DNA from: Candidatus Eiseniibacteriota bacterium
Lineage (GTDB): Bacteria > Eisenbacteria > RBG-16-71-46 > JABDJR01 > JAWXBZ01
NCBI GenBank assembly: GCA_034440375.1
Contig: JAWXBZ010000155.1
Coordinates: forward strand, 1-23,586
Direction of reading: 5' to 3'
Length of the DNA: 23,586 nucleotides
Part shown: positions 1 through 18,940 of the stretch, in pieces
How positions within the stretch are numbered: position 1 is the stretch's first letter
Layout: every line of letters starts with the position of its first letter
Program-made: the position numbers and the translations under genes
Notes under the pieces: model-generated
Told to the model about the DNA's origin: nothing
What the model saw: the letters and a program-made list of their open reading frames with translations, nothing else
Database searches by the model: none

Positions 1-232
1 GCTGGCCGGCCAGCCATGGCGGTACCTTGGCATGATCGGCAGCCGCCGAAAGGTTCGCGTCGTGCTCGATCGACTACTGGAACAGGGGGTGCCGGCCGCG
101 ACGCTTGAACGGGTGCACGCGCCCATCGGTGTCCCGATCGGATCGCATCGTCCCGAGGAAGTGGCGGTGTCGATCCTGGCCGAACTGGTCGCCATACGGA
201 ATGGCGTTCCGTCACCGGGGCGGATTCGATGA
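1..232 (+). CDS. XdhC-family molybdenum-cofactor insertion/sulfuration accessory protein, C-terminal part (5' end outside window)
   Basis: The frame is open from the window edge to TGA at 230-232. The C-terminal motif ...HAPIGVPIGSHRPEEVAVSILAELVAIRNG is the characteristic XdhC_C tail (hAPiGLdIGa.tPeEIAvSIlAEii). The stop overlaps the next gene start (ATGA at 229-232). Confidence 0.5.
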   Translation, partial: LAGQPWRYLGMIGSRRKVRVVLDRLLEQGVPAATLERVHAPIGVPIGSHRPEEVAVSILAELVAIRNGVPSPGRIR

Positions 233-1071
233 ACGAAATTGCGCTGATCCGCGGTGGTGGCCGACTGGGTACGGCGGTCGCGCATCGGCTTCGCCTGTGC
301 GGTTTTCCGGTGGTAATCGTCGAAGCGGCGCGGCCGACCTTGATCCATCGTCGTGCTTGCCTGGGCGCGGCGATCGAAGAATCTGAACTGACGGTTGAGG
401 GCGTCACGGCTCGCCGCGCCTCCGGCCCTGAGGGGGTAAGGCAAATCCTGGAGGATGGGGCGGTGCCGGTACTGGTTGACCCTGCCGCCGCCATTCGTCA
501 ATCGCTCGTCCCCTGGGTGCTGATCGACGCCATCGGGCTCGATCGAAACGTCGGCACCAGTCGAAACGACGCCCCGATCGTCGTGGCCCTGGGGCCCGGC
601 TTCGCCGCCGGCGTGGACGCGCATGCGGTCGTCGAGTCTCGGGCGAATGTCGACCTCGGCCGGTTTACCACGGACGGTCCGCTCCGCACGGGCGCCATCC
701 CCCTGTCGACCGATGCCGGCTGGCCCTACGGGGCGGGTCTCGTTCTGGCCCCGATCCCCGGCCGCTTCGAGGCCCGCGCGGCGCTGGGAGATACCCTCGA
801 GCCCGGGGTGCTGCTGGGCGTCATCGGCGGCCGGGAGATCAAGGCGCCGAGGGGCGGCCTCGTGGCCGGACTCCTGGCTGACGGACTGTTCGTCGGGCCG
901 GGCATGCGAGTGGCCGACATTGACCCTGGCGGGCCGGAAGGACGCCTTCACGCGATCGACCCCCTGGCGCGCGCGGCGGCCGGCGGCGTTCTTGAAGCCA
1001 TCCTCCATCTGGCGGCACTCGGCCGGGAAGCCGGCCAATCACTGGCCTCGCGTCGCACTGATACGCTCTGA
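229..1071 (+). CDS. YqeB/EF2563-family protein (XdhC-related; family used as a marker of the selenium-dependent molybdenum hydroxylase maturation system)
   Basis: The N-terminus IRGGGRLGTAVAHRLRLCGFPVVIVEAARPTLIHRRACLGAAIE matches the Rossmann-like IRGaGDlasGva.RL...G..V block of this family. Later blocks (LIDAIGLDRNVGT, ALGPGFAAGVDAHAVVESRANVDLGRFT) match the family's AkrNiGT and ViETnRGh.LGRvi blocks. This assignment is from memory of the family, not from a search. Confidence 0.45.
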   Translation: MNEIALIRGGGRLGTAVAHRLRLCGFPVVIVEAARPTLIHRRACLGAAIEESELTVEGVTARRASGPEGVRQILEDGAVPVLVDPAAAIRQSLVPWVLIDAIGLDRNVGTSRNDAPIVVALGPGFAAGVDAHAVVESRANVDLGRFTTDGPLRTGAIPLSTDAGWPYGAGLVLAPIPGRFEARAALGDTLEPGVLLGVIGGREIKAPRGGLVAGLLADGLFVGPGMRVADIDPGGPEGRLHAIDPLARAAAGGVLEAILHLAALGREAGQSLASRRTDTL

Positions 1072-1089
1072 CGCACGATACGCTCTGAC
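1055..1089 (+). repeat. Tandem duplication (about 17-18 bp unit, gcac(t)GATACGCTCTGAC x2) spanning the stop codon of the YqeB-like gene
   Basis: The 13-bp string gatacgctctgac occurs at 1060-1072 and again at 1077-1089, each preceded by gcac(t). The first copy contains the TGA stop (1069-1071). Confidence 0.8.
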
Positions 1090-1122
1090 CATTGCCATCA
1101 GACTAAACGTTGAGTAAACTCG

Positions 1123-1149
1123 TCAACAATCTCAACAATCTCAACAATC
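1123..1149 (+). repeat. Perfect 3 x 9 bp tandem repeat (tcaacaatc)3 lying 31 bp upstream of the Rrf2 start codon; candidate operator/promoter element
   Basis: Direct reading shows tcaacaatc at 1123-1131, 1132-1140 and 1141-1149. A GGAG Shine-Dalgarno sits at 1169-1172 and the ATG at 1180. Confidence 0.85.
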
Positions 1150-1179
1150 GACTGGCGACACGGAGATTGGAGCGAGGGC

Positions 1180-1614
1180 ATGAAGCTGACATCCCGGATC
1201 GACTATGGACTGCGCGCGATGCTCGACCTTGCGCTTCACGCGGGTGGCGGGCCGGTCGCGAATCACGACATCTCGCGCCGCCAGCGGATACCGGAGCAGT
1301 ACCTGAAGCAGATCCTGCCGGCGCTTCGTCGGCAGGGGCTGGTCCGAAGTACGCGGGGACCGACCGGCGGACATCGCCTCGCACGCCGGCCGGAAGAGGT
1401 CACGGTGGCCGAAGTTCTGCGGGCTCTCGAGGGGAGCCTTGAGATAGTGGAAATCGGGAAGGCGGGGAATACCGGAGGCGAGTCAGCTCGAATCCTGGGC
1501 CCTTTCTGGGTTGACCTGGCGCGGACAGTCGAGGTCTTCCTGGAATCGACCACGCTGGACGACCTCTGCCGACGAAAGCGACGCCATGACCAGTCGCTCA
1601 TCTATCACATCTAA
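1180..1614 (+). CDS. Rrf2-family transcriptional regulator, CymR-like (no Fe-S cysteine triad)
   Basis: The N-terminal wHTH signature [18 protein letters not shown] is diagnostic for Rrf2 (IscR/NsrR/CymR). There is a single Cys only (DLCRR), so cluster-less like CymR. It lies immediately upstream of, and overlapping, cysK. Confidence 0.85.
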
Positions 1615-2608
1615 CGGGGCGGGTGCCGACGGGCGCCGACAAAGCCTGGAACCGGATCGAGGCGTGACGGCCATCCACGACAGCCTGACCGACCTGATCG
1701 GCAAGACACCGCTTGTCCGATTGCATCGCGTCACGTCGGGTGTCCCCGCGGAGATCATCGTCAAGCTCGAGTCGATGAATCCGATGTCGAGCGTCAAGGA
1801 CAGGACCGGATGGGCCATGATACAGGCCGCCGAGGAATCGGGACGCTTGATGCCTGGCGCCACCATCATTGAAGCCACCAGTGGCAATACCGGCGTGGCC
1901 CTCGCGTTTGTGTCCGCCTCCCGCGGCTATCGGCTGATCCTTTTGATGCCCGATACGATGAGCGAGGGACGCGTCCGGCTCCTGAGCGCCCTCGGCGCTC
2001 GGGTCATTCTGACGCCCGGCGCGCTCGGGATGAAGGGCGCGGTCGACGAGGCGATGGCCCTGGCCGGGACAACTCCGGGCGCCTTCATGCCGATGCAGTT
2101 CGACAACCCGGCCAACCCCGAGGTTCACCGGACGACGACCGCCGAGGAAATTTGGGCCGACACGGGCGGGGAACTCGATGCCTTCGTTTCCGGCATCGGC
2201 ACGGGTGGGACGATCACCGGCGTGGGTGAGGTGTTGAAGTCGCGGCGTCCCTCGATTCGGATCATTGGCGTCGAACCGGCGGAGTCGCCGGTGTTGTCCG
2301 GCGGCGAGGGAGCCCCGCATGACATCCAGGGGATCGGCGCGGGTTTCGTCCCAAAGGTGTTGAACCGTTCGATCCTGGATGAAATCATGACGATTTCCGG
2401 TCCCGAGGCCTACCAGATGGTTCGCCGACTCGCCCGCGAGGAAGGACTGCTGGTCGGCATCTCCTCCGGCGCCGCAGTGACCGCCGCCTTACGGGTGGCG
2501 GCACGCCCTTCCATGCGTGGTCGGCGGATCGTGGCCCTGCTGGCCAGTCATGGCGAGCGGTACCTGGATGTTCCCGGCCTGTACGACGGTGATCGCGATG
2601 ACGGCTGA
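1586..2608 (+). CDS. cysK: Cysteine synthase A (O-acetylserine sulfhydrylase, PLP-dependent)
   Basis: Carries the PLP-lysine block [18 protein letters not shown] and the glycine-rich PLP-phosphate loop [12 protein letters not shown]. The [15 protein letters not shown] block is the TSGNTG substrate loop. The ATG at 1586 was preferred over the ORF-track ATG at 1511 because the homologous sequence begins near ...[20 protein letters not shown] at 1664 is an alternative start. Confidence 0.9.
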
Positions 2609-3467
2609 CCGACCCGGACTTGCTGCGCCCCCGGCAGCGGCGGACGAGGGGCTCGTCGAACGCCTCTCCCGGCTGGAATCTATCCTGGCCGGGATGGGGA
2701 CGGTGCTGGTGGCCTACTCGGGCGGCGTCGATTCGGCGTACCTCCTCCTGGCGGCGCATCGCGTCCTCGGCGATGGTGCCGTGGGCGTCCTGGCAGTTTC
2801 ACCCTCGCTGCCGGCGGCCGAACGGGAGGCGGCGATGCGGGTGGCGGGCGAAATCGGCGCGCGCCTTGAAATCGTGGATGCCTTCGAGCACATGAATCCC
2901 GACTACGTGGTCAACAACCCGAATCGTTGCTACTTCTGCAAGACCGAACTGTTCGATGTGGCGGCGCCGGTGGCCGAACGCCTCGGCCTGGCTTCCATCG
3001 CATACGGCGCCAATCGGGACGACCTCGGCGACTTTCGCCCCGGCATGGTGGCGGCCCGGGAGCGGGGGATTCGGGCACCGCTCCTCGAAGCGGACTTGAG
3101 CAAGTCGGACATCCGCGCTCTGGCCCGTGAGGCGGGGCTTTCGATCTGGGACAAGCCGGCCTTCGCCTGCCTGGCCTCGCGCATCCCGCACGGAACGCCG
3201 GTCACACCGGAAAGACTGGCCCGCGTCGAAGCGGCCGAGACGGTCCTGCGCGATTCCGGCTTCCGCCAGTTTCGCGTGCGCGACTTTGGCCGGAAGGCCC
3301 GCGTCGAGGTGGCACCCGAAGATGTCGGACGACTGCTGGCCGAACCGCTCCGGCGTGACGTCGAACGCCGTCTCATGGCACTCGGCTTCATGACGGTGGA
3401 GATGGATCCGGAAGGTTATCGCCCCGGCAAGCTGCACGGTGCGCGCGTGGAGGCTGATCCATCATGA
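2598..3467 (+). CDS. LarE-type PP-loop ATP pyrophosphatase / sulfur insertase (TIGR00268-like) with a CxxC...C triad
   Basis: The PP-loop SGGVDS lies in [15 protein letters not shown]. The LarE-family blocks [13 protein letters not shown] and [12 protein letters not shown] are present. The three Cys (CYFC plus CLASR) match the [4Fe-4S]-binding LarE subtype rather than the single-Cys sacrificial type. ATG 2598 was chosen (ORF-track ATG 2517 would overlap cysK by 90 bp). The 2598 start overlaps the cysK stop by 11 nt, and the stop overlaps the aroDE start (ATGA). Confidence 0.75.
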
Positions 3468-4966
3468 AGCCGGACCGCAATCTCGTTCTGGTCGTCGCGA
3501 ACGCCGACCCACTGGCGGCACAGCGTCAACTCACCCGTCCTCCGGTCGGCATCGATGCGTTCGAACTCCGAATTGACCGGCTGGCCCCCGAGGCACGGAC
3601 GGCCGGGCGTGTCGCGGAACTCGTCGCGGCGTCGACGCTGCCCGTGGTGGCCACCTGCCGCCCGACGGATGAGTCGGGATTCTTCGAGGGCCCGGACGCG
3701 GCGCGGTGGGAACTCCTGTCGGCCGCGCACCAGGCCGGGGCGGCCCTGATCGACGTTGAATGGAGCCGCCTGCGTGAGGATCGAGCCATGGCCAACCGCT
3801 GGCCGTCGGAACAGCTCCTCGTTTCGCATCACGCAGCCTCCGGGGCGAATCACGTCCTCGAGGACGAACTCCTGGCCATGACTGGTATCAAGGCCGCCGG
3901 TATCAAGCTGGTGGCCAACGCCACCGGTTTCGCGGATTCGATGCGGCTCGTTGAGATGACACGCCACCTGGCGCGTTCCGGTCGCCGGGCCACCTGCTTT
4001 TCCTCAGGTCGGGCGTCCCTGGCCGGCCGTGTCCTTGGCTACCTGGCCGGTGCCTGGCTCACGTATCTGGTGCCGGACGGCGACGACCCGCCGGGCCCGG
4101 GCATTCCAAATGTCTCGATGCTGCTGGATCTGTACCGACTGCCGGCGCAGGGCGACTCCGTCAAACTGCTCGGCCTGGCCGGCTGGCCTCTCGACCACTC
4201 ACTGTCGCCGCGGATGCAGAACAACGTCATCCGTGTGCTGGGTGAGCGCTACATCTATCTGCCATTCGAATCGGAGTCGATTGCCGAGGTGATCGATTTC
4301 GTCCGGCATCATGATGTGCGGGGCCTGTCGGTCACCCGGCCTCACAAGGAATCCGTGGTGCCGCTTCTCGACGGACTCGACGCGACCGCGCGGCAGGCGG
4401 GAGCCGTCAACACCGTCGTGAAGGAGGGGCCACGACTGATCGGGTGGAATACCGATCTCCTGGCCATGCGGTCGATCCTGGGCGAGTGGGGGGCCGGCAC
4501 CCTGGATCGCGCGGTGGTGATCGGCGCGGGCGGGGCGGCGCGCGCCGTCGTGGCGGCGCTGGTCGAACGGGATGTTCCGGTCCTCATACTGAATCGTGAC
4601 GCCATGCGCGGCCGTGCCCTCGCCGACGAATGTCATGCGGAGTACGGCGGGGAACCGTCCGCACTGGGCACCCACCGTGGCACGATCCTCGTCCAGGCCA
4701 CCCCGCTTGGCTCGGGTGGCGAGATTCTCCAGGTGCCGGGAGGGTTTGGCGGTGTGCGGGCGGTGCTCGACCTGGCCTACCGACCGGGCGGTACGTCACT
4801 CGAGATCAGCGCGCGTGACGCCGGCCTGGCGGTGATCAGCGGCCACGACTTTCTGGCCCGACAGGGCGCCGCGCAGTTCGCCCTGTGGACGCGTCGGCTC
4901 GTCGATCCCGGACTTTTTCGGGACGCGCTCAGCGAGGAAACGGCCACCCGCGAGGCCGCGTGCTAG
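3464..4966 (+). CDS. aroDE: Bifunctional 3-dehydroquinate dehydratase (type I) / shikimate 5-dehydrogenase
   Basis: The N-terminal half has type-I DHQase blocks (FELRIDRL; ATCRPTDESGFFEG like tiRt..EGG; LLVSHHA; Schiff-base Lys in GIKLVANATGF). The C-terminal half has AroE blocks (LLGLAGWPLDHSLSPRMQN, SVTRPHKESV, AGAVNTVV, IGWNTD, and the NADP Rossmann VVIGAGGAARAV). Confidence 0.85.
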   Translation: MKPDRNLVLVVANADPLAAQRQLTRPPVGIDAFELRIDRLAPEARTAGRVAELVAASTLPVVATCRPTDESGFFEGPDAARWELLSAAHQAGAALIDVEWSRLREDRAMANRWPSEQLLVSHHAASGANHVLEDELLAMTGIKAAGIKLVANATGFADSMRLVEMTRHLARSGRRATCFSSGRASLAGRVLGYLAGAWLTYLVPDGDDPPGPGIPNVSMLLDLYRLPAQGDSVKLLGLAGWPLDHSLSPRMQNNVIRVLGERYIYLPFESESIAEVIDFVRHHDVRGLSVTRPHKESVVPLLDGLDATARQAGAVNTVVKEGPRLIGWNTDLLAMRSILGEWGAGTLDRAVVIGAGGAARAVVAALVERDVPVLILNRDAMRGRALADECHAEYGGEPSALGTHRGTILVQATPLGSGGEILQVPGGFGGVRAVLDLAYRPGGTSLEISARDAGLAVISGHDFLARQGAAQFALWTRRLVDPGLFRDALSEETATREAAC

Positions 4967-6483
4967 GGCGGGTCGAATTGGAGGAATTGCGCCGACTGTC
5001 CCGCACCGGAAATCTCGTGCCGATCGTCCGCGAAGTACCGGCGGATCTTCTGACGCCGGTCGCGGCCTTTCTCATGATCGAAGGCGCCGATTCCGAATCG
5101 TTCCTTCTCGAGAGTGTGGAGGGGGGGGAGCGACTGGCCCGCTATTCCTTCCTCGGCCGCGATCCATTCCTGTCCGTGACGGTTCGGGGAGGGCATGTCT
5201 CTCTCCGGGATCATCGGGATCACACGTCGAGGGAGTTCGAGAGCGAGGATCCGCTGGCGACACTTCGCGAATTACTGGGGCGATATCGCGCGGCCCGCGT
5301 TCCGGGGCTTCCCCGGTTCACGGGCGGCGCCGTCGGATGGTTCGGCTATGACACCGTGCGGTGGATCGAGGAACTGCCGGAGTCGGCCGTCGACGATCGT
5401 GGACTTGCCGACGTGGAGCTCCGCTTCTTCGACACCGTACTGGCCTTCGACCATGCCAAAGGAAGGCTGCTTCTCATCGCCAATGCCCATGTCGGCGAGG
5501 CCGACGACGAGGCGGCATTCGAGGCGGCAATTGCCGATGCCAATGCACGGATCAAAGCACTCCTGACCCGTCTCTCGATCGGCCCCGGTGCGACGAACAC
5601 CCCCCGCGCGATGCCGCTTCGCGAAGCCGCCGTCACTTTGCCGGCCGATGTCCGCTCGAACATGTCCCGCGCCGCCTTCGAAGCGATGGTCGAATCGGCC
5701 CTCGAACACATCCGGGCGGGCGACATCTTCCAGGTGGTTCTCTCGCAGCGATTCGAGGTGTCGACGGTGTCCCACCCCTTCGACCTGTATCGATCGCTGC
5801 GGGCCATCAATCCCTCCCCCTACATGTACTTTCTCGGCTTCGGCCGGGCTCCGGTTGTAGGCTCTTCGCCCGAACCGCTGGTCCGGGTACAGGACGGGCG
5901 TCTCGAGTACCGCCCGATCGCCGGGACCGTGGCCCGCGGTGTGGATGACGAGGAGGACGAGCGCCGCGCGAAGGAGCTTCTCGCCGACGAGAAGGAACGG
6001 GCGGAGCACATCATGCTGGTCGACCTCGGGCGCAATGACCTGGGGCGCGTGGCCGAACCGGGAAGCGTGGAGGTCACCGACTTCATGGTGGTGGAGAAGT
6101 ACTCGCATGTCATGCATCTCGTATCGCGGCTGACCGCCCGGCTGCGCGCCGATTGCGATGCGCTTGACGCCCTGTACGCCTGTTTCCCGGCCGGCACCGT
6201 GTCGGGCGCGCCAAAGGTTCGGGCGATGGAGATCATCGAGACGCTGGAGCCAACTCGCCGAGGCCTGTATGCCGGGGCGGTTGGGTACGTCGACTTCGCC
6301 GGCAATCTTGATACGGCCATCGCGCTGCGAACGATGGTGGTGGAGGACGGCGTGGCTTACATCCAGGCCGGGGCCGGCATCGTCGCCGACAGCCGACCCG
6401 ACCGGGAGTTTGACGAGACGGTGCAGAAGGCCCGGGCGCTGGTGGTCGCCATCGAACGGACCTGCCCGGGCGGGGGGGACTGA
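4960..6483 (+). CDS. trpE: Anthranilate synthase component I
   Basis: Carries the chorismate-binding enzyme signature region: LVPIVREVPADLLTPVAAF at the N-terminus, then FQVVLSQRFE, PSPYMYFLGFG, GAVGYVDFAGNLDTAIALRTM and IQAGAGIVADS. Start assigned to GTG 4960, which overlaps the aroDE stop by 7 nt and is preceded by GAGG. The ORF-track ATG at 4885 would overlap aroDE by 82 bp. Confidence 0.9.
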   Translation: MLGRVELEELRRLSRTGNLVPIVREVPADLLTPVAAFLMIEGADSESFLLESVEGGERLARYSFLGRDPFLSVTVRGGHVSLRDHRDHTSREFESEDPLATLRELLGRYRAARVPGLPRFTGGAVGWFGYDTVRWIEELPESAVDDRGLADVELRFFDTVLAFDHAKGRLLLIANAHVGEADDEAAFEAAIADANARIKALLTRLSIGPGATNTPRAMPLREAAVTLPADVRSNMSRAAFEAMVESALEHIRAGDIFQVVLSQRFEVSTVSHPFDLYRSLRAINPSPYMYFLGFGRAPVVGSSPEPLVRVQDGRLEYRPIAGTVARGVDDEEDERRAKELLADEKERAEHIMLVDLGRNDLGRVAEPGSVEVTDFMVVEKYSHVMHLVSRLTARLRADCDALDALYACFPAGTVSGAPKVRAMEIIETLEPTRRGLYAGAVGYVDFAGNLDTAIALRTMVVEDGVAYIQAGAGIVADSRPDREFDETVQKARALVVAIERTCPGGGD

Positions 6484-6484
6484 C

Positions 6485-7138
6485 GTGGCCAACCGTGTTC
6501 GCATCAAGATTTGCGGCCTGACCACGTTGGCGAATGCGCGCCAGGTAGCCGAACTCGGCATAGAGGAGATCGGATTCAACTTCTTCCAGCCGAGCCTGCG
6601 CTACCTGGATCCGCTTCTGGCCCGGGATATTGCCCGCGGCCTCCCGCCGGAGGTGCGTCGCGTCGGCGTTTTCGTCAACGCAACGGCGGCCGTCGTCGAC
6701 CAGATCAGTGAGCTCGTCGGACTTGACCGCGTGCAACTTCACGGTGAGGAGAGCCGGGAATTCTGCCTCGCCCGTCCACGCACCGTGATCAAGGCGTTTC
6801 GGTCGTCACCCGATTTGTCGCTCGAGGTTCTGGAGTCGTTTCGGGACCTTCCGGTCCTGCTCGACGGGTATCATCCCGGGCTTCACGGCGGCACCGGACA
6901 ACAGGCCGACTGGGTCATGGCTCGTCGAATGGTTGACGCCGGGTTCCGACTCTACCTGGCTGGCGGGCTTGGGCCCGACAATCTGGCCGACGCGATTGCC
7001 ACCGTTCGCCCCGCCGTTGTTGATCTGAACAGCGGTGTGGAGTCGGCGCCGGGATTGAAGGATATTGGCCGGGTGGCGGCGGCGATCGAGGTCGTGCGCG
7101 AAGCCGGGATCGCGTCGGCCGGAGAACGGAAGCCATGA
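6485..7138 (+). CDS. trpF: N-(5'-phosphoribosyl)anthranilate isomerase
   Basis: [10 protein letters not shown]...[18 protein letters not shown]...VGVFVN...DRVQLHGEE is the PRAI pattern. GTG at 6485 sits 1 nt after the trpE TGA and is preceded by a G-rich Shine-Dalgarno. The ORF-track upstream extension (6158) lies inside trpE and was rejected. Confidence 0.8.
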
Positions 7139-8349
7139 CGAACTTGACCGATTCCGACGACCGGCGGCCCGACGCGCGGGGCTATTTCGGCCCGTATGGC
7201 GGCCGCTTCGTGCCGGAAACGTTGATGGCCGCCCTCGAGACACTGACCGCCGAATATGAGGCCGCAAGGCGGGACCCCGACTTCCTCGGCGAGCTGGAGC
7301 GTGAGTTGATCAGCTTTGCCGGGCGGCCGACGCCTCTCGATCCGGCACCGCGGCTGTCGGCCGCCTGGGGCGGCCTCGACGTCTGGCTGAAGCGGGAGGA
7401 TCTCCTTCACACCGGCGCTCACAAGATCAATAACACGATCGGCCAGATCCTCCTGGCACGACGAATGGGGAAGACGCGGATCATCGCCGAGACCGGGGCC
7501 GGCCAGCACGGCGTCGCCACCGCCACCGTGGCCGCCAAGTTCGGCCTGCCGTGCGTCGTCTACATGGGGGAGGAGGATGTCCGGCGGCAATCGCTGAACT
7601 ACTTCCGGATGAAACTTCTCGGCGCCGAAGTCGTGCCGGTGACCTCGGGTAGCCGGACGCTGAAAGACGCCACGAACGAAGCGATCCGCGATTGGGTGAC
7701 CAATGTGCGCGACACGTTCTATATCATCGGCTCGGTGGTCGGCCCGCACCCGTACCCGGTGATGGTCCGCGATTTTCAGTCAATCATCGGCCGCGAGGCC
7801 AGGGAGCAAATGCTGGCAGAAACCAGCCGGTTGCCCGACGTGGCTGTGGCCTGTGTGGGCGGCGGCTCGAACGCCATCGGACTCTTTCACGCCTTCGTTC
7901 CGGATGAATCGGTGCGTCTGGTCGGGGTGGAGGCGGCGGGGCACGGTGTCGACACCGACCAGCACTCCGCCACGCTGACCCTTGGCACCCCGGGAATCCT
8001 GCACGGGGCGCGTTCGTATCTGCTGCAGGACGACGACGGCCAGGTGCGACTGGCTCATTCCATTTCGGCCGGCCTCGACTACCCGGGCGTCGGTCCGGAG
8101 CATGCGTTTCTGAAAGACACCGGTCGGGTGCACTACGCGACGGTCACGGATGACGAGGCTCTTTCCGCTCTCCAGGAAACGGCGCGGCTCACCGGCATCA
8201 TTCCCGCACTCGAAACGGCGCACGCCTTCGCCTGGCTCCGGCGCGAGGGGCCATCACTCGGGCGTGGCACGACGGTGGTTGTCTGTTTTTCCGGCCGGGG
8301 CGACAAGGACGTGCCCCGGGTGGCCGAAATCCTCGGCGGTGGCGCATGA
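7135..8349 (+). CDS. trpB: Tryptophan synthase beta chain
   Basis: [36 protein letters not shown] (PLP lysine) and [11 protein letters not shown] identify trpB. The start overlaps the trpF stop (ATGA). Confidence 0.95.
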
Positions 8350-16595: not shown

Positions 16596-16606
16596 GGTGG
16601 AAAAGC

Positions 16607-18940
16607 CTAGCCGGATTTCTTTGCGGCGGTCAACCGCTCGATCAGCCTGGCAACGCCCGGATGGTCGGGCGCGAGCGCCCGTGCCAGAAACGCCTGTTCC
16701 CTCGCTTCGTCGAGCCGTCCCTGCTGTTCCAACGCCGCGGCCAGGCCGTACAACGCGCCAGGCTCGCGCGCCGCGACCGCCAGCGAGGCGCGGAAATCCA
16801 TTTCTGCATCCACCGGACGCTGCATCTCAAGCAGCAGGAATCCCCGATTCATGCGAACCCGCTGGTCGTTCGGCTGGAGCTGTATCGCCCGTCCGTAATT
16901 TGCCAGGGCCTCGTCATGGCGTCCCTGCCGCTGGTAGCAGACGGCTAGATTATCCCAGCCGAGCGCGTACCCCGGGTCGGCCGAAAGGAGTCGGACAAGC
17001 AGCGTCTCGGCCGAGGCATAGTCCTCCCGTTTCAAGAGCACGGCGGCGAGATTGGCCACCGCGGTGCGATCGGCGGGATCGGCGGCGAGCGCGCGGCGAA
17101 AGGCCGTCTCGGCCTCGACCATCCGCCCCTCCTTCGCCAGGACGATGCCGAGATTCACCAGGGAGCGCGCGTCGGCCGGTGCGTGCTGGTCATCGGCCGA
17201 CACGATGCCGGCAACCGGATCACGCCCCGGGGGTCGCGCTGCGTGCCCATCGAACAGGGTTCCGGGCTGGAAGGCCTCCGTCAGCGGCCGTCCCTCCAGC
17301 TCATCCGGCAGCGGGAGCCCAAGTCGTGCCAGTAATGTCGGCGCGATGTCATAGACCGTGGCGGAGGTGAGCGCCGCGCCCGGCTTGACACCGGGCCCGG
17401 CGAGGATCACGACGCCGTCGAGAAGATGCCAGCGCGCCGCATCGGCCTCTTCCATCTCGGCGCTCCCCGAAAGGCGGGCCTGGCCGGAGCGAAAACCATG
17501 ATCCGAGACAACCATGATCAGGGTGCTCTCGTCCGCGGCTTCGATGAAACGACCGAGCATCTCGTCCTGGCGGCGATACGCCTCGCGGACGGCGTGCCCG
17601 AATCGACGGCCGTCGTCCGCGGCCACGCCGGGCATCAAGGGGGGCGCAAAGGGCATGAACAGGTGGCCGGTGGCATCGATAAACTCGAAGTAGACGGCCA
17701 TGACATCCGGACGCCGCGTGCGATACAGCTCGAGCCCCAGCGCCGCGTAGCTCTCGGCCGTGGCCAGCGTGTGGATGAAGTTGTTGATTCGATTCCCCTT
17801 CTCGTAGCCGCCCCGCCGCGCCGCCTTGATCTCGGCGGGTGGGACGTCCAGGTAGCGTCGTACCATCGCGTCCGTTACGGCTTCGGACGCGACCGCAAGG
17901 CTTTCGTGACCCTCGAGGAGGTCCGCCGGATAGATCACGTCGGCGTCCGGCGTGGTGGCCGATTTTCCGGCGAAAGCCAGGAATCCGAATCGATCGGTGA
18001 CAATGAATCCTTCGATCGATTCGGCGGGCCAGGTGGCCAGCCATCCGATGATGCCGCTGGAACGCCCGGCGGACGATGCCCGATTCCAGAACGCGGGCAC
18101 GCGCCGAAGACGACTGGTGGCCGGCACCGACTTGCCGGTGGCCGGATCGTTGACCATGAAATCAAGAATGCCGTGGCGGGCCGGGGAGACGCCGGTAGCG
18201 ATCGTGGTCCATATCAGCGGCGAGAGGAGCGGTTCGATGGAGCGGAGCGGCCCCGACGCACCTCGTTCGACGAGCATCGAGAGCACCGGCAACTGCCCTT
18301 CGCTGCGAAGCCGGTCGATGATGGTCCAATCAGCGGCATCTATTCCGACGAGCAGGACTTTTCCGCGGAATGGATTTGCGCCGCCCGTGGGCAGAGCTTC
18401 CCTTCCGGGGGCGGCCAGTGTCGTCACTTCGATGGACAGGAGTCGGGCGCCCGATTCATTGAACGACGGTCGCATCCGCGTGGCCAGTGTTTCCGCCAGC
18501 CGGGGTCCGTCGAGATTCTCGATCGATTGCTCGGCCGCGGCCAGGCGGAGTTCGCTCTTCAGCAGGGGAACGAAATGACCTCGCGCATTACCGCCCACCG
18601 CCGCCTGGAATCGGGGGAGATCCGCGTTGCTCACCTCAAATCGAAGGGAAAGCGCCACGACGAGCGGTGCGCCCGCTGCGGTGAAAGCGCCGAATCGCCC
18701 TTCCGCCGTGTCGGCTTCGGCCGGAAAGGCGATCGTCATCGGCCCGGCAGGCCAGAGCGACATCCTTCCCGAGAGAGGAGAGACGACGTGTCGTCCGGGT
18801 CCGAGGACTCGCGCGCCGCTTCCGGAACCGACGACTCCCCGCTGTCCGGGCGGCACGGAGCGGATGGAGAGCACGAGTAAGACCGCCCCGGCGAGCCCGA
18901 CGACCAGTGCTGGAAGGATCCAGCGGGGGCGGCGACTCAT
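16607..18940 (-). CDS. Membrane-anchored tri-domain protein: SPFH/band-7-like domain + alkaline-phosphatase-superfamily type I phosphodiesterase/nucleotide pyrophosphatase (COG3379-like) + C-terminal TPR repeats
   Basis: N-terminal anchor MSRRPRWILPALVVGLAGAVLLVLSI. Then VPPGQRGVV...LGPGRHVV.P......FEV...LP...A... follows the SPFH N-terminal pattern (V.eGerGVv..fG.....l.PGlhf.iP). The middle domain has VLLVGIDAADW, SPLIWTTIATGVSPARHGILDF, MVVSDHGF and WHLLDGVVILAGPG...VYDIAPTLLARLGLPLP (AlkP-core metal/nucleophile motifs). The C-terminal roughly 200 aa are TPR (AETAFRRALAADPAD...YQRQGRHDEALANYGRAIQLQPND...). Its stop is 11 nt before the next gene. Confidence 0.6.
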   Translation of the reverse strand: MSRRPRWILPALVVGLAGAVLLVLSIRSVPPGQRGVVGSGSGARVLGPGRHVVSPLSGRMSLWPAGPMTIAFPAEADTAEGRFGAFTAAGAPLVVALSLRFEVSNADLPRFQAAVGGNARGHFVPLLKSELRLAAAEQSIENLDGPRLAETLATRMRPSFNESGARLLSIEVTTLAAPGREALPTGGANPFRGKVLLVGIDAADWTIIDRLRSEGQLPVLSMLVERGASGPLRSIEPLLSPLIWTTIATGVSPARHGILDFMVNDPATGKSVPATSRLRRVPAFWNRASSAGRSSGIIGWLATWPAESIEGFIVTDRFGFLAFAGKSATTPDADVIYPADLLEGHESLAVASEAVTDAMVRRYLDVPPAEIKAARRGGYEKGNRINNFIHTLATAESYAALGLELYRTRRPDVMAVYFEFIDATGHLFMPFAPPLMPGVAADDGRRFGHAVREAYRRQDEMLGRFIEAADESTLIMVVSDHGFRSGQARLSGSAEMEEADAARWHLLDGVVILAGPGVKPGAALTSATVYDIAPTLLARLGLPLPDELEGRPLTEAFQPGTLFDGHAARPPGRDPVAGIVSADDQHAPADARSLVNLGIVLAKEGRMVEAETAFRRALAADPADRTAVANLAAVLLKREDYASAETLLVRLLSADPGYALGWDNLAVCYQRQGRHDEALANYGRAIQLQPNDQRVRMNRGFLLLEMQRPVDAEMDFRASLAVAAREPGALYGLAAALEQQGRLDEAREQAFLARALAPDHPGVARLIERLTAAKKSG

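Follow-up and report, generated by a model that had tools for sequence, protein, structure and literature searches.

A probable [4Fe-4S]-dependent LarE in a CysK-linked operon with a CymR-like regulator in Candidatus Eiseniibacteriota

We analysed a 23,586-nucleotide stretch of DNA (hereafter the window) from a Candidatus Eiseniibacteriota bacterium (contig JAWXBZ010000155.1, positions 1 to 23,586), with attention to larE, a gene for a PP-loop sulfur insertase that overlaps the end of cysK. The reading that we favour, and hold to be probable, is that this LarE is a catalytic, [4Fe-4S]-dependent enzyme encoded in a CysK-linked operon under a CymR-like regulator, with CysK securing its sulfur supply. 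Judged from its sequence, LarE itself most likely makes the precursor of the nickel-pincer cofactor. The features that carry this reading, all on the plus strand, are as follows.

1092-1149, plus strand: promoter-like site, with TTGCCA at 1092-1097, a 17-nt spacer and TAAACT at 1115-1120; candidate promoter and operator of the rrf2 operon.
1180-1614, plus strand: rrf2, CymR-like regulator gene (PF02082, 120 bits); product without Fe-S ligand cysteines, ending in ...SLIYHI.
1664-2608, plus strand: cysK, O-acetylserine sulfhydrylase A; start GTG at 1664 (public call) or ATG at 1586, stop TGA at 2606-2608.
2598-3467, plus strand: larE, [4Fe-4S]-type (CxxC...C) PP-loop sulfur insertase; start ATG at 2598-2600, stop TGA at 3465-3467.

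The larE product is about 289 amino acids long when read from the ATG at 2598, a start favoured by the N-termini of close homologues (MTAD.., MTSD..); the public gene caller chose an alternative in-frame ATG at 2568 (299 amino acids, P0001). In a profile search the protein scored 297.7 bits against TIGR00268 (LarE; cutoff 150), covering positions 3-258 of the 259 in the profile, and the PP-loop motif SGGVDS lies at residue 41. Its only three cysteines, C111 and C114 (in NPNRCYFCK) and C191 (in AFACLASR), all belong to the CxxC...C triad and were invariant in an alignment of 27 homologues. Searched against solved structures, the protein hit L. plantarum LarE (5UDQ; E 7e-43), the two sharing 34% identity across 259 residues. 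The third cysteine aligns one residue beyond the position of the sacrificial C176 of that enzyme, a shift reported as the pattern of cluster-type LarE (PMC9283937), while S194, R226 and R228 align with S180, R212 and R214, which bind the phosphate of pyridinium-3,5-biscarboxylate mononucleotide (P2CMN) in L. plantarum, and are likewise invariant among the 27 homologues. With an AlphaFold model of the protein (pLDDT 90.2), all of the top 50 matches in the Protein Data Bank (PDB) were LarE structures, at target-normalised TM-scores of 0.81-0.94. Given the cysteine triad, the TIGR00268 score, the alignment with 5UDQ and the model, membership of the LarE family and of its cluster-type subclass is therefore well supported. 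This agrees with the initial annotation, which had seen in the triad a catalytic, cluster-type LarE and had proposed the TIGR00268 search as a check; C111, C114 and C191 would be the ligands of the [4Fe-4S] cluster. The same annotation had considered that the protein might instead cluster with tRNA-thiolation PP-loop ATPases, an identity that we rejected because other PP-loop families appeared only at E > 1e-5.

CysK scored 428.2 bits against TIGR01139 in a profile search (cutoff 350.95), and its SVKDR motif, with the pyridoxal phosphate (PLP) lysine, and its TSGNTG and GTGGT motifs were all found. The start of larE overlaps the end of cysK by 11 nt, and the ATG of the downstream aroD-aroE fusion gene (aroDE), at 3464, overlaps the larE stop by 4 nt (ATGA), both just as first annotated. 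In all six contigs of a Candidatus Eisenbacteria-like clade (LarE identity 62-100%) cysK and larE overlap or lie at most 10 nt apart, and in five of the six they are preceded by xdhC, a yqeB-like gene and rrf2. The conservation of Rrf2-cysK-larE in relatives, a check that had been suggested at the outset, was thus found in five of six contigs, and that of cysK-larE in six of six. The remaining member (L084) has the order xdhC-cysK-larE-aroDE followed by a DAHP synthase gene, and lacks yqeB, rrf2 and the trp genes. From proS to the DUF1684 gene, the entire block is rigidly syntenic in the clade. Among homologues at 56-59% LarE identity the gene context differs from that of the window clade, and cysK does not adjoin larE in L045, which carries the sister Eisenbacteria LarE.

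The link between cysK and larE is real and recurs in other lineages. Our comparison set held 160 diverse LarE loci from genomes and metagenomes (41-56% identity, among the matches listed), and cysK adjoins or is fused to larE in at least five lineages outside the clade, in both gene orders. These include a cysK-larE pair (L053), an rrf2-cysK-larE row in a Geobacteraceae metagenome-assembled genome (L057), and a cysK that sits 76 nt upstream of larE (L115). Larger clusters were also seen: L072 carries rrf2-cysK, an E1-like gene, MOSC, cutA, larE and nifS, and three further loci (L092, L099 and L103; L103:2951-8658) carry rrf2-cysK, a SAMP/MoaD::MoeB-like E1 fusion, a JAMM desampylase-like gene and larE, with SAMP-like and thrC-like genes on the opposite strand and, in L103, an Rrf2 tail reading ARYYI. 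The carrier cluster of the L103 type suggests that a protein thiocarboxylate is the sulfur donor of LarE in those organisms. In L043, L049 and L072, a nifS gene is found no more than 1.5 kb from larE. The closest association is a LarE-CysK fusion encoded by a single open reading frame of 587-591 amino acids (L153:9995-11755, L159:9995-11764; P0121-P0125), in which LarE (334-341 bits) is followed by CysK (456-463 bits) and the catalytic motifs of both are intact. Public data contain five clusters of this fusion at 90% identity, which all belong to a single narrow lineage of low GC (44%), and its neighbours are a CymR-like Rrf2, homocysteine synthase and metA, with cymR-nifS-nifU-mnmA nearby. 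By a rough estimate of our own, which takes 1-2 cysK copies among ~3,500 genes, chance would place a directly adjacent cysK in only ~0.1-0.2 of 160 loci. Because the gene orders differ and the LarEs concerned are not each other's closest relatives, the link outside the clade arose several times independently. In the searchable literature we found no published LarE-CysK link, save a listing among Thi4 neighbours (PMC13325395).

The gene upstream of cysK had been described as an Rrf2 regulator without the Fe-S cysteine triad and likened to CymR. Its product contains a single cysteine (...DDLCRRK), which lies outside the IscR ligand region and leaves no cluster triad. Neither the CymR model NF047409 (99.1 bits, cutoff 195) nor the IscR model (103.9 bits, cutoff 207.6) was reached. 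The comparison with CymR is borne out at the C-terminus, where the protein has a CymR-type ...Y-x-I tail: LIYHI in the window, FIYHI or FTYHI in relatives, and FMYYI or QMYYI in other cysK-adjacent Rrf2 proteins. In S. aureus the CymR tail is YMFYI, and its terminal Ile docks with nanomolar affinity in the active site of CysK (bioRxiv 10.1101/2024.09.19.614015). By its tail and its absent Fe-S ligands, the window Rrf2 resembles CymR. The cysK-adjacent Rrf2 proteins of two loci of deltaproteobacterial type (L057:8249-8716 and L072:442-882) combine IscR-like cysteine clusters with a CymR-like ...MYYI tail; these could be hybrid sensors of an Fe-S cluster and of CysK alike.

Within bases 1-11000, the site at 1092-1120, in the gap before rrf2, is the sole sigma-70-like match. 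Its -10-like hexamer overlaps a palindrome, GTTGA-N9-TCAAC (1109-1127; GTTGAGTAAACTCGTCAAC), which is followed by three perfect tandem units of TCAACAATC (1123-1149, 100% matches). The block GTGAGTAAACTnnTCAACAAnnTCAACAA is kept upstream of rrf2 in three relatives (L002, L003, L168) and partly in a fourth (L170); four of the five clade members retain the 1109-1149 block, the proteins of these relatives being just 63-74% identical. We infer that 1092-1149 holds the promoter and operator of an autoregulated, cysteine-responsive operon. The operator is presumably unrelated to the Bacillus CymR box. No riboswitch or leader was matched in Rfam anywhere in the window, and shuffled controls contained more terminator-like sites than bases 1-11000 did. 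The yqeB stop codon lies inside a direct repeat of 17-18 bp (CGCACTGATACGCTCTGA, 2.1 copies) at 1054-1089.

To place the window LarE among its homologues, we used the same 160 loci, in which LarB and LarC were located by tblastn with reference proteins confirmed with NCBIfam. In a neighbour-joining tree the window clade was sister to another Eisenbacteria LarE (L045) and nested within the general LarE radiation, with LarEs of lar operons scattered through the same tree, so that the protein nests among lar-linked enzymes. Its identity to lar-linked LarEs (46-50%) was equal to that with other cysK-linked ones (41-51%). Of 73 positions conserved to 85% or more among 48 LarEs linked to lar operons, it keeps 67, and most of its differences are conservative. 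A separate cysK-linked subfamily was considered and rejected, as tree placement, identities and conserved positions gave no such grouping, and cysK-linked LarEs stand no nearer to one another than to those of lar operons. Because the phosphate-site Ser and Arg-x-Arg and these 67 positions are kept, the likely substrate would stay P2CMN; the initial proposal that the enzyme acts on an unknown substrate finds no support in these residues or in the missing subfamily. The sole sequence hint of a changed specificity is F230 (window 3285-3287), two residues past the R-x-R site, which replaces a near-universal His (the equivalent of L. plantarum H216) present, among the matches listed, in 154 of 164 homologues and in every one of the 48 lar-linked LarEs. 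The position is Phe in the window and Leu in three close relatives (L002, L003, L084), and the His is kept in other cysK-linked lineages.

No larB or larC was found in the 23.6-kb window by tblastn, as the initial annotation had said. Its premise that lar operons are the usual setting of LarE was not supported. Among the matches listed, 82 of the 160 loci had at least 3 kb on both sides of larE, and larB or larC lay within 3 kb in just 21 of these (26%), cysK, nifS or an E1-like gene in 11 (13%), and neither lar nor sulfur genes in 50 (~60%). In Haloferax, larB, larC and larE stand at separate loci (PMC8305020), and larBCE without larA occurs in ~15% of surveyed genomes (PMC11796402). Given the 21 of 82 loci and the dispersed Haloferax genes, a window of this length without larB or larC is therefore not unusual and says little, dispersed lar genes being the norm.

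On our favoured reading, the operon rrf2-cysK-larE-aroDE-trpEFBA would be transcribed from the promoter at ~1092-1120. Rrf2 would act as a CymR-like repressor whose ...IYHI tail could dock into the active site of CysK, and the operon would answer O-acetylserine/cysteine status through the GTTGA-N9-TCAAC / TCAACAATC operator. By the mechanism of the characterised family, LarE would adenylylate the carboxyl groups of P2CMN, whereupon AMP would be replaced by sulfide carried on the free iron of the cluster held by C111, C114 and C191. With sulfur flowing towards LarE, the CysK beside it would secure the cysteine-derived sulfur that reloads the cluster, either (a) by way of a cysteine desulfurase, the route demonstrated in vitro with Thermotoga LarE, or (b) by the desulfhydrase reaction that CysK is known to catalyse on the side. 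The recurrent cysK-larE link fits the behaviour of Thermotoga LarE, which turns over catalytically in vitro when given cysteine and E. coli IscS (PMC9283937).

The nearest known systems are the LarEs of T. maritima (PMC9283937) and M. maripaludis (8CNZ), which share with the window protein a length of ~289 amino acids, the same fold, the SGGxDS and CxxC...C motifs, the shifted third Cys, and the Ser plus Arg-x-Arg site; the Thermotoga enzyme, moreover, requires cysteine-derived sulfur. The window larE differs from that of T. maritima in being cysK-linked, with a CymR-like regulator and no nearby lar genes, whereas the desulfurase genes of T. maritima lie distant from its larE. Compared with these two enzymes, the window protein lacks a fourth Cys adjoining the motif and has Phe for the near-universal His after R-x-R. 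L. plantarum LarE (5UDQ) has the same fold (target-normalised TM-scores ~0.8-0.9) and the same ATP and phosphate sites, but consumes its single Cys176, lacks the CxxC and is encoded in a larABCDE operon. The [4Fe-4S] PP-loop thiolases of the TtuA-TtuB type, which draw on sulfur-carrier thiocarboxylates, would share the proposed chemistry, namely attack on an adenylylated substrate by a non-core sulfide on a three-Cys cluster, and in L092, L099 and L103 larE adjoins SAMP/MoaD-like carrier, E1 and JAMM genes, like ttuA. In contrast, carrier, E1 and JAMM genes are missing from the window locus, and TtuA acts on tRNA rather than on a small carboxylate. With the CymR-CysK pair of B. subtilis and S. 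aureus, the locus has in common an Rrf2 protein without Fe-S ligands, a C-terminal aromatic-x-Ile tail and a place in cysteine metabolism; it differs in that the Rrf2 gene immediately precedes cysK and larE, and in that the protein scores below the CymR cutoff. In vitro, IscS with cysteine serves [4Fe-4S]-type LarE as a sulfur source (PMC9283937); for the cell, cysK adjacency, the LarE-CysK fusion, and nifS or carrier/E1/JAMM neighbours point to candidate physiological donors. The CymR-CysK regulatory pair, known from Firmicutes, would also be extended to an uncultured phylum of the FCB group.

Several points weigh against the favoured reading. Adjacency conserved in a single clade can be mere inheritance; the Rrf2 protein, at 99 bits, falls short of the 195 bits set for a CymR equivalog; there is no obvious reason for aromatic amino-acid genes to stand under a cysteine-responsive promoter; and the clade is without the near-universal LarE His beside the phosphate site. 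In addition, larA, larB and larC were found neither in the window nor in the flanks of relatives, which extend to as much as 10 kb either way where the contigs permit, and none of the 11 sulfur-gene-linked loci also carries larB or larC within 3 kb, where ~2.8 would be expected, a shortfall that is not significant.

Alternatively, the adjacency may be coincidental, with a normal nickel-pincer LarE lying in inherited housekeeping synteny and having no functional tie to cysteine synthesis. The rigid synteny of the proS-DUF1684 block in the clade, the loose context of LarE seen in the ~60% of diverse loci (among the matches listed) that have neither lar nor sulfur genes, and the sister Eisenbacteria LarE without an adjoining cysK all speak for such an account. 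Against it stand the adjacency or fusion to cysK in at least five other lineages and in both orders, compared with our rough chance estimate of ~0.1-0.2 per 160 loci, a LarE-CysK fusion that keeps both active sites, and the recurrence of nifS and sulfur-carrier systems beside larE. We regard coincidence as unlikely.

Less probable still is an orphan LarE, in essence the initial proposal, which in this clade, and perhaps wherever larE is cysK-linked, would thiolate a carboxylate other than P2CMN or serve in sulfur trafficking in a genome without larB and larC. The absence of lar genes from every flank examined, the 0 of 11 sulfur-linked loci with larB or larC (among the matches listed), and the loss in the clade of the His beside the substrate phosphate site all lean that way. 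Against them stand the retained phosphate-binding Ser and Arg-x-Arg with 67 of the 73 conserved positions, the failure of cysK-linked LarEs to form a subfamily, the His retained by other cysK-linked lineages, and the dispersal of lar genes as the norm (PMC8305020 for Haloferax). If larB and larC should prove absent genome-wide, an orphan LarE would gain weight. A bolder variant, to which we give a similarly low probability, is that in the absence of larB and larC the CysK-coupled LarE of this clade, which has lost the near-universal His, is no nickel-pincer enzyme and thiolates another carboxylate, or that CysK passes sulfide to LarE directly, the two forming a dedicated two-enzyme module, the same that stands as a single fused polypeptide in another lineage.

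Upstream of the promoter-like site lie two further genes, which the initial annotation had tied to sulfur or selenium delivery.

1-231, plus strand: 3' end of xdhC, XdhC-family molybdenum cofactor (Moco) chaperone, cut by the window edge (PF13478, 74 bits; NF045664 XdhC_rel_AOR, 82 bits, partial).
229-1071, plus strand: yqeB-like gene (TIGR03309, 213.1 bits against a cutoff of 220, full-length), with a 4-nt ATGA overlap with xdhC.

The full xdhC, of 264 amino acids, was seen in L001-L003. XdhC acts in Moco sulfuration, and the cysK-larE block has xdhC ahead of it in all six clade members and yqeB in five of them; yet a joint action of LarE and CysK with XdhC/YqeB in Moco sulfuration or selenation is very improbable, given that neither gene occurs within 5 kb of LarE in the 160 other loci (among the matches listed; two XdhC genes lie at ~9.5 kb), that yqeB is missing in L084, that a 108-nt gap with the promoter-like element sets the xdhC-yqeB pair off from rrf2, that the window holds no Mo hydroxylase or selD, and that LarE chemistry targets a carboxylate, which Moco sulfuration does not involve. 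A general association of XdhC/YqeB with LarE was rejected on the same 160 loci, no tie of XdhC/YqeB to LarE or selenium was found in the locus comparisons, and no Mo hydroxylase or Moco gene was found near xdhC-yqeB. Thus the presence of XdhC and YqeB upstream stands as first annotated, while the functional sulfur or selenium link does not; the two are probably syntenic neighbours specific to the clade and not part of the cysK-larE unit. In relatives, divergent PMT_2/TPR glycosyltransferase-like genes were seen upstream of xdhC-yqeB.

Downstream of larE the long plus-strand gene row continues; the window is of high GC (0.60-0.70), even throughout.

3464-4966, plus strand: aroD-aroE fusion, type I dehydroquinase plus shikimate dehydrogenase (PF01487, PF08501, PF01488; NF001319, 180 bits).
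~4975-6483, plus strand: trpE (Pfam Chorismate_bind/Anth_synt_I_N).
~6476-7138, plus strand: trpF (Pfam PRAI).
7135-8349, plus strand: trpB (Pfam PALP).
8346-9167, plus strand: trpA (Pfam Trp_syntA).
9271-10311, plus strand: DAHP synthase, type I-beta with an N-terminal ferredoxin-like domain (PF00793, 267 bits; PF18152, 60 bits), after a 103-nt gap.

The four trp genes are tightly packed, stand in the same order in L002, L003 and L168, and are presumably co-transcribed with rrf2-cysK-larE-aroDE. The trp cluster (4975-9167) consists of trpE, trpF, trpB and trpA only, with trpG, trpD and trpC not in the window; it lies head-to-tail with the aroD-aroE fusion, and L084 has no trp genes at this site. 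DAHP synthase is encoded by two tandem genes in L168 and by a doubled, fused gene in L003. On the minus strand, the 15210-18940 region encodes a 461-amino-acid protein with a C-terminal multihaem cytochrome c554-like region (paired CXXCH) and, in the adjoining gene, a 777-amino-acid protein with SPFH/Band 7, type I phosphodiesterase and TPR domains. Another minus-strand gene (11060-11656), conserved at 191-198 amino acids and without a Pfam match, is kept beside the DUF1684 gene in the contigs that reach that far (L002, L003, L084, L085 and L168).

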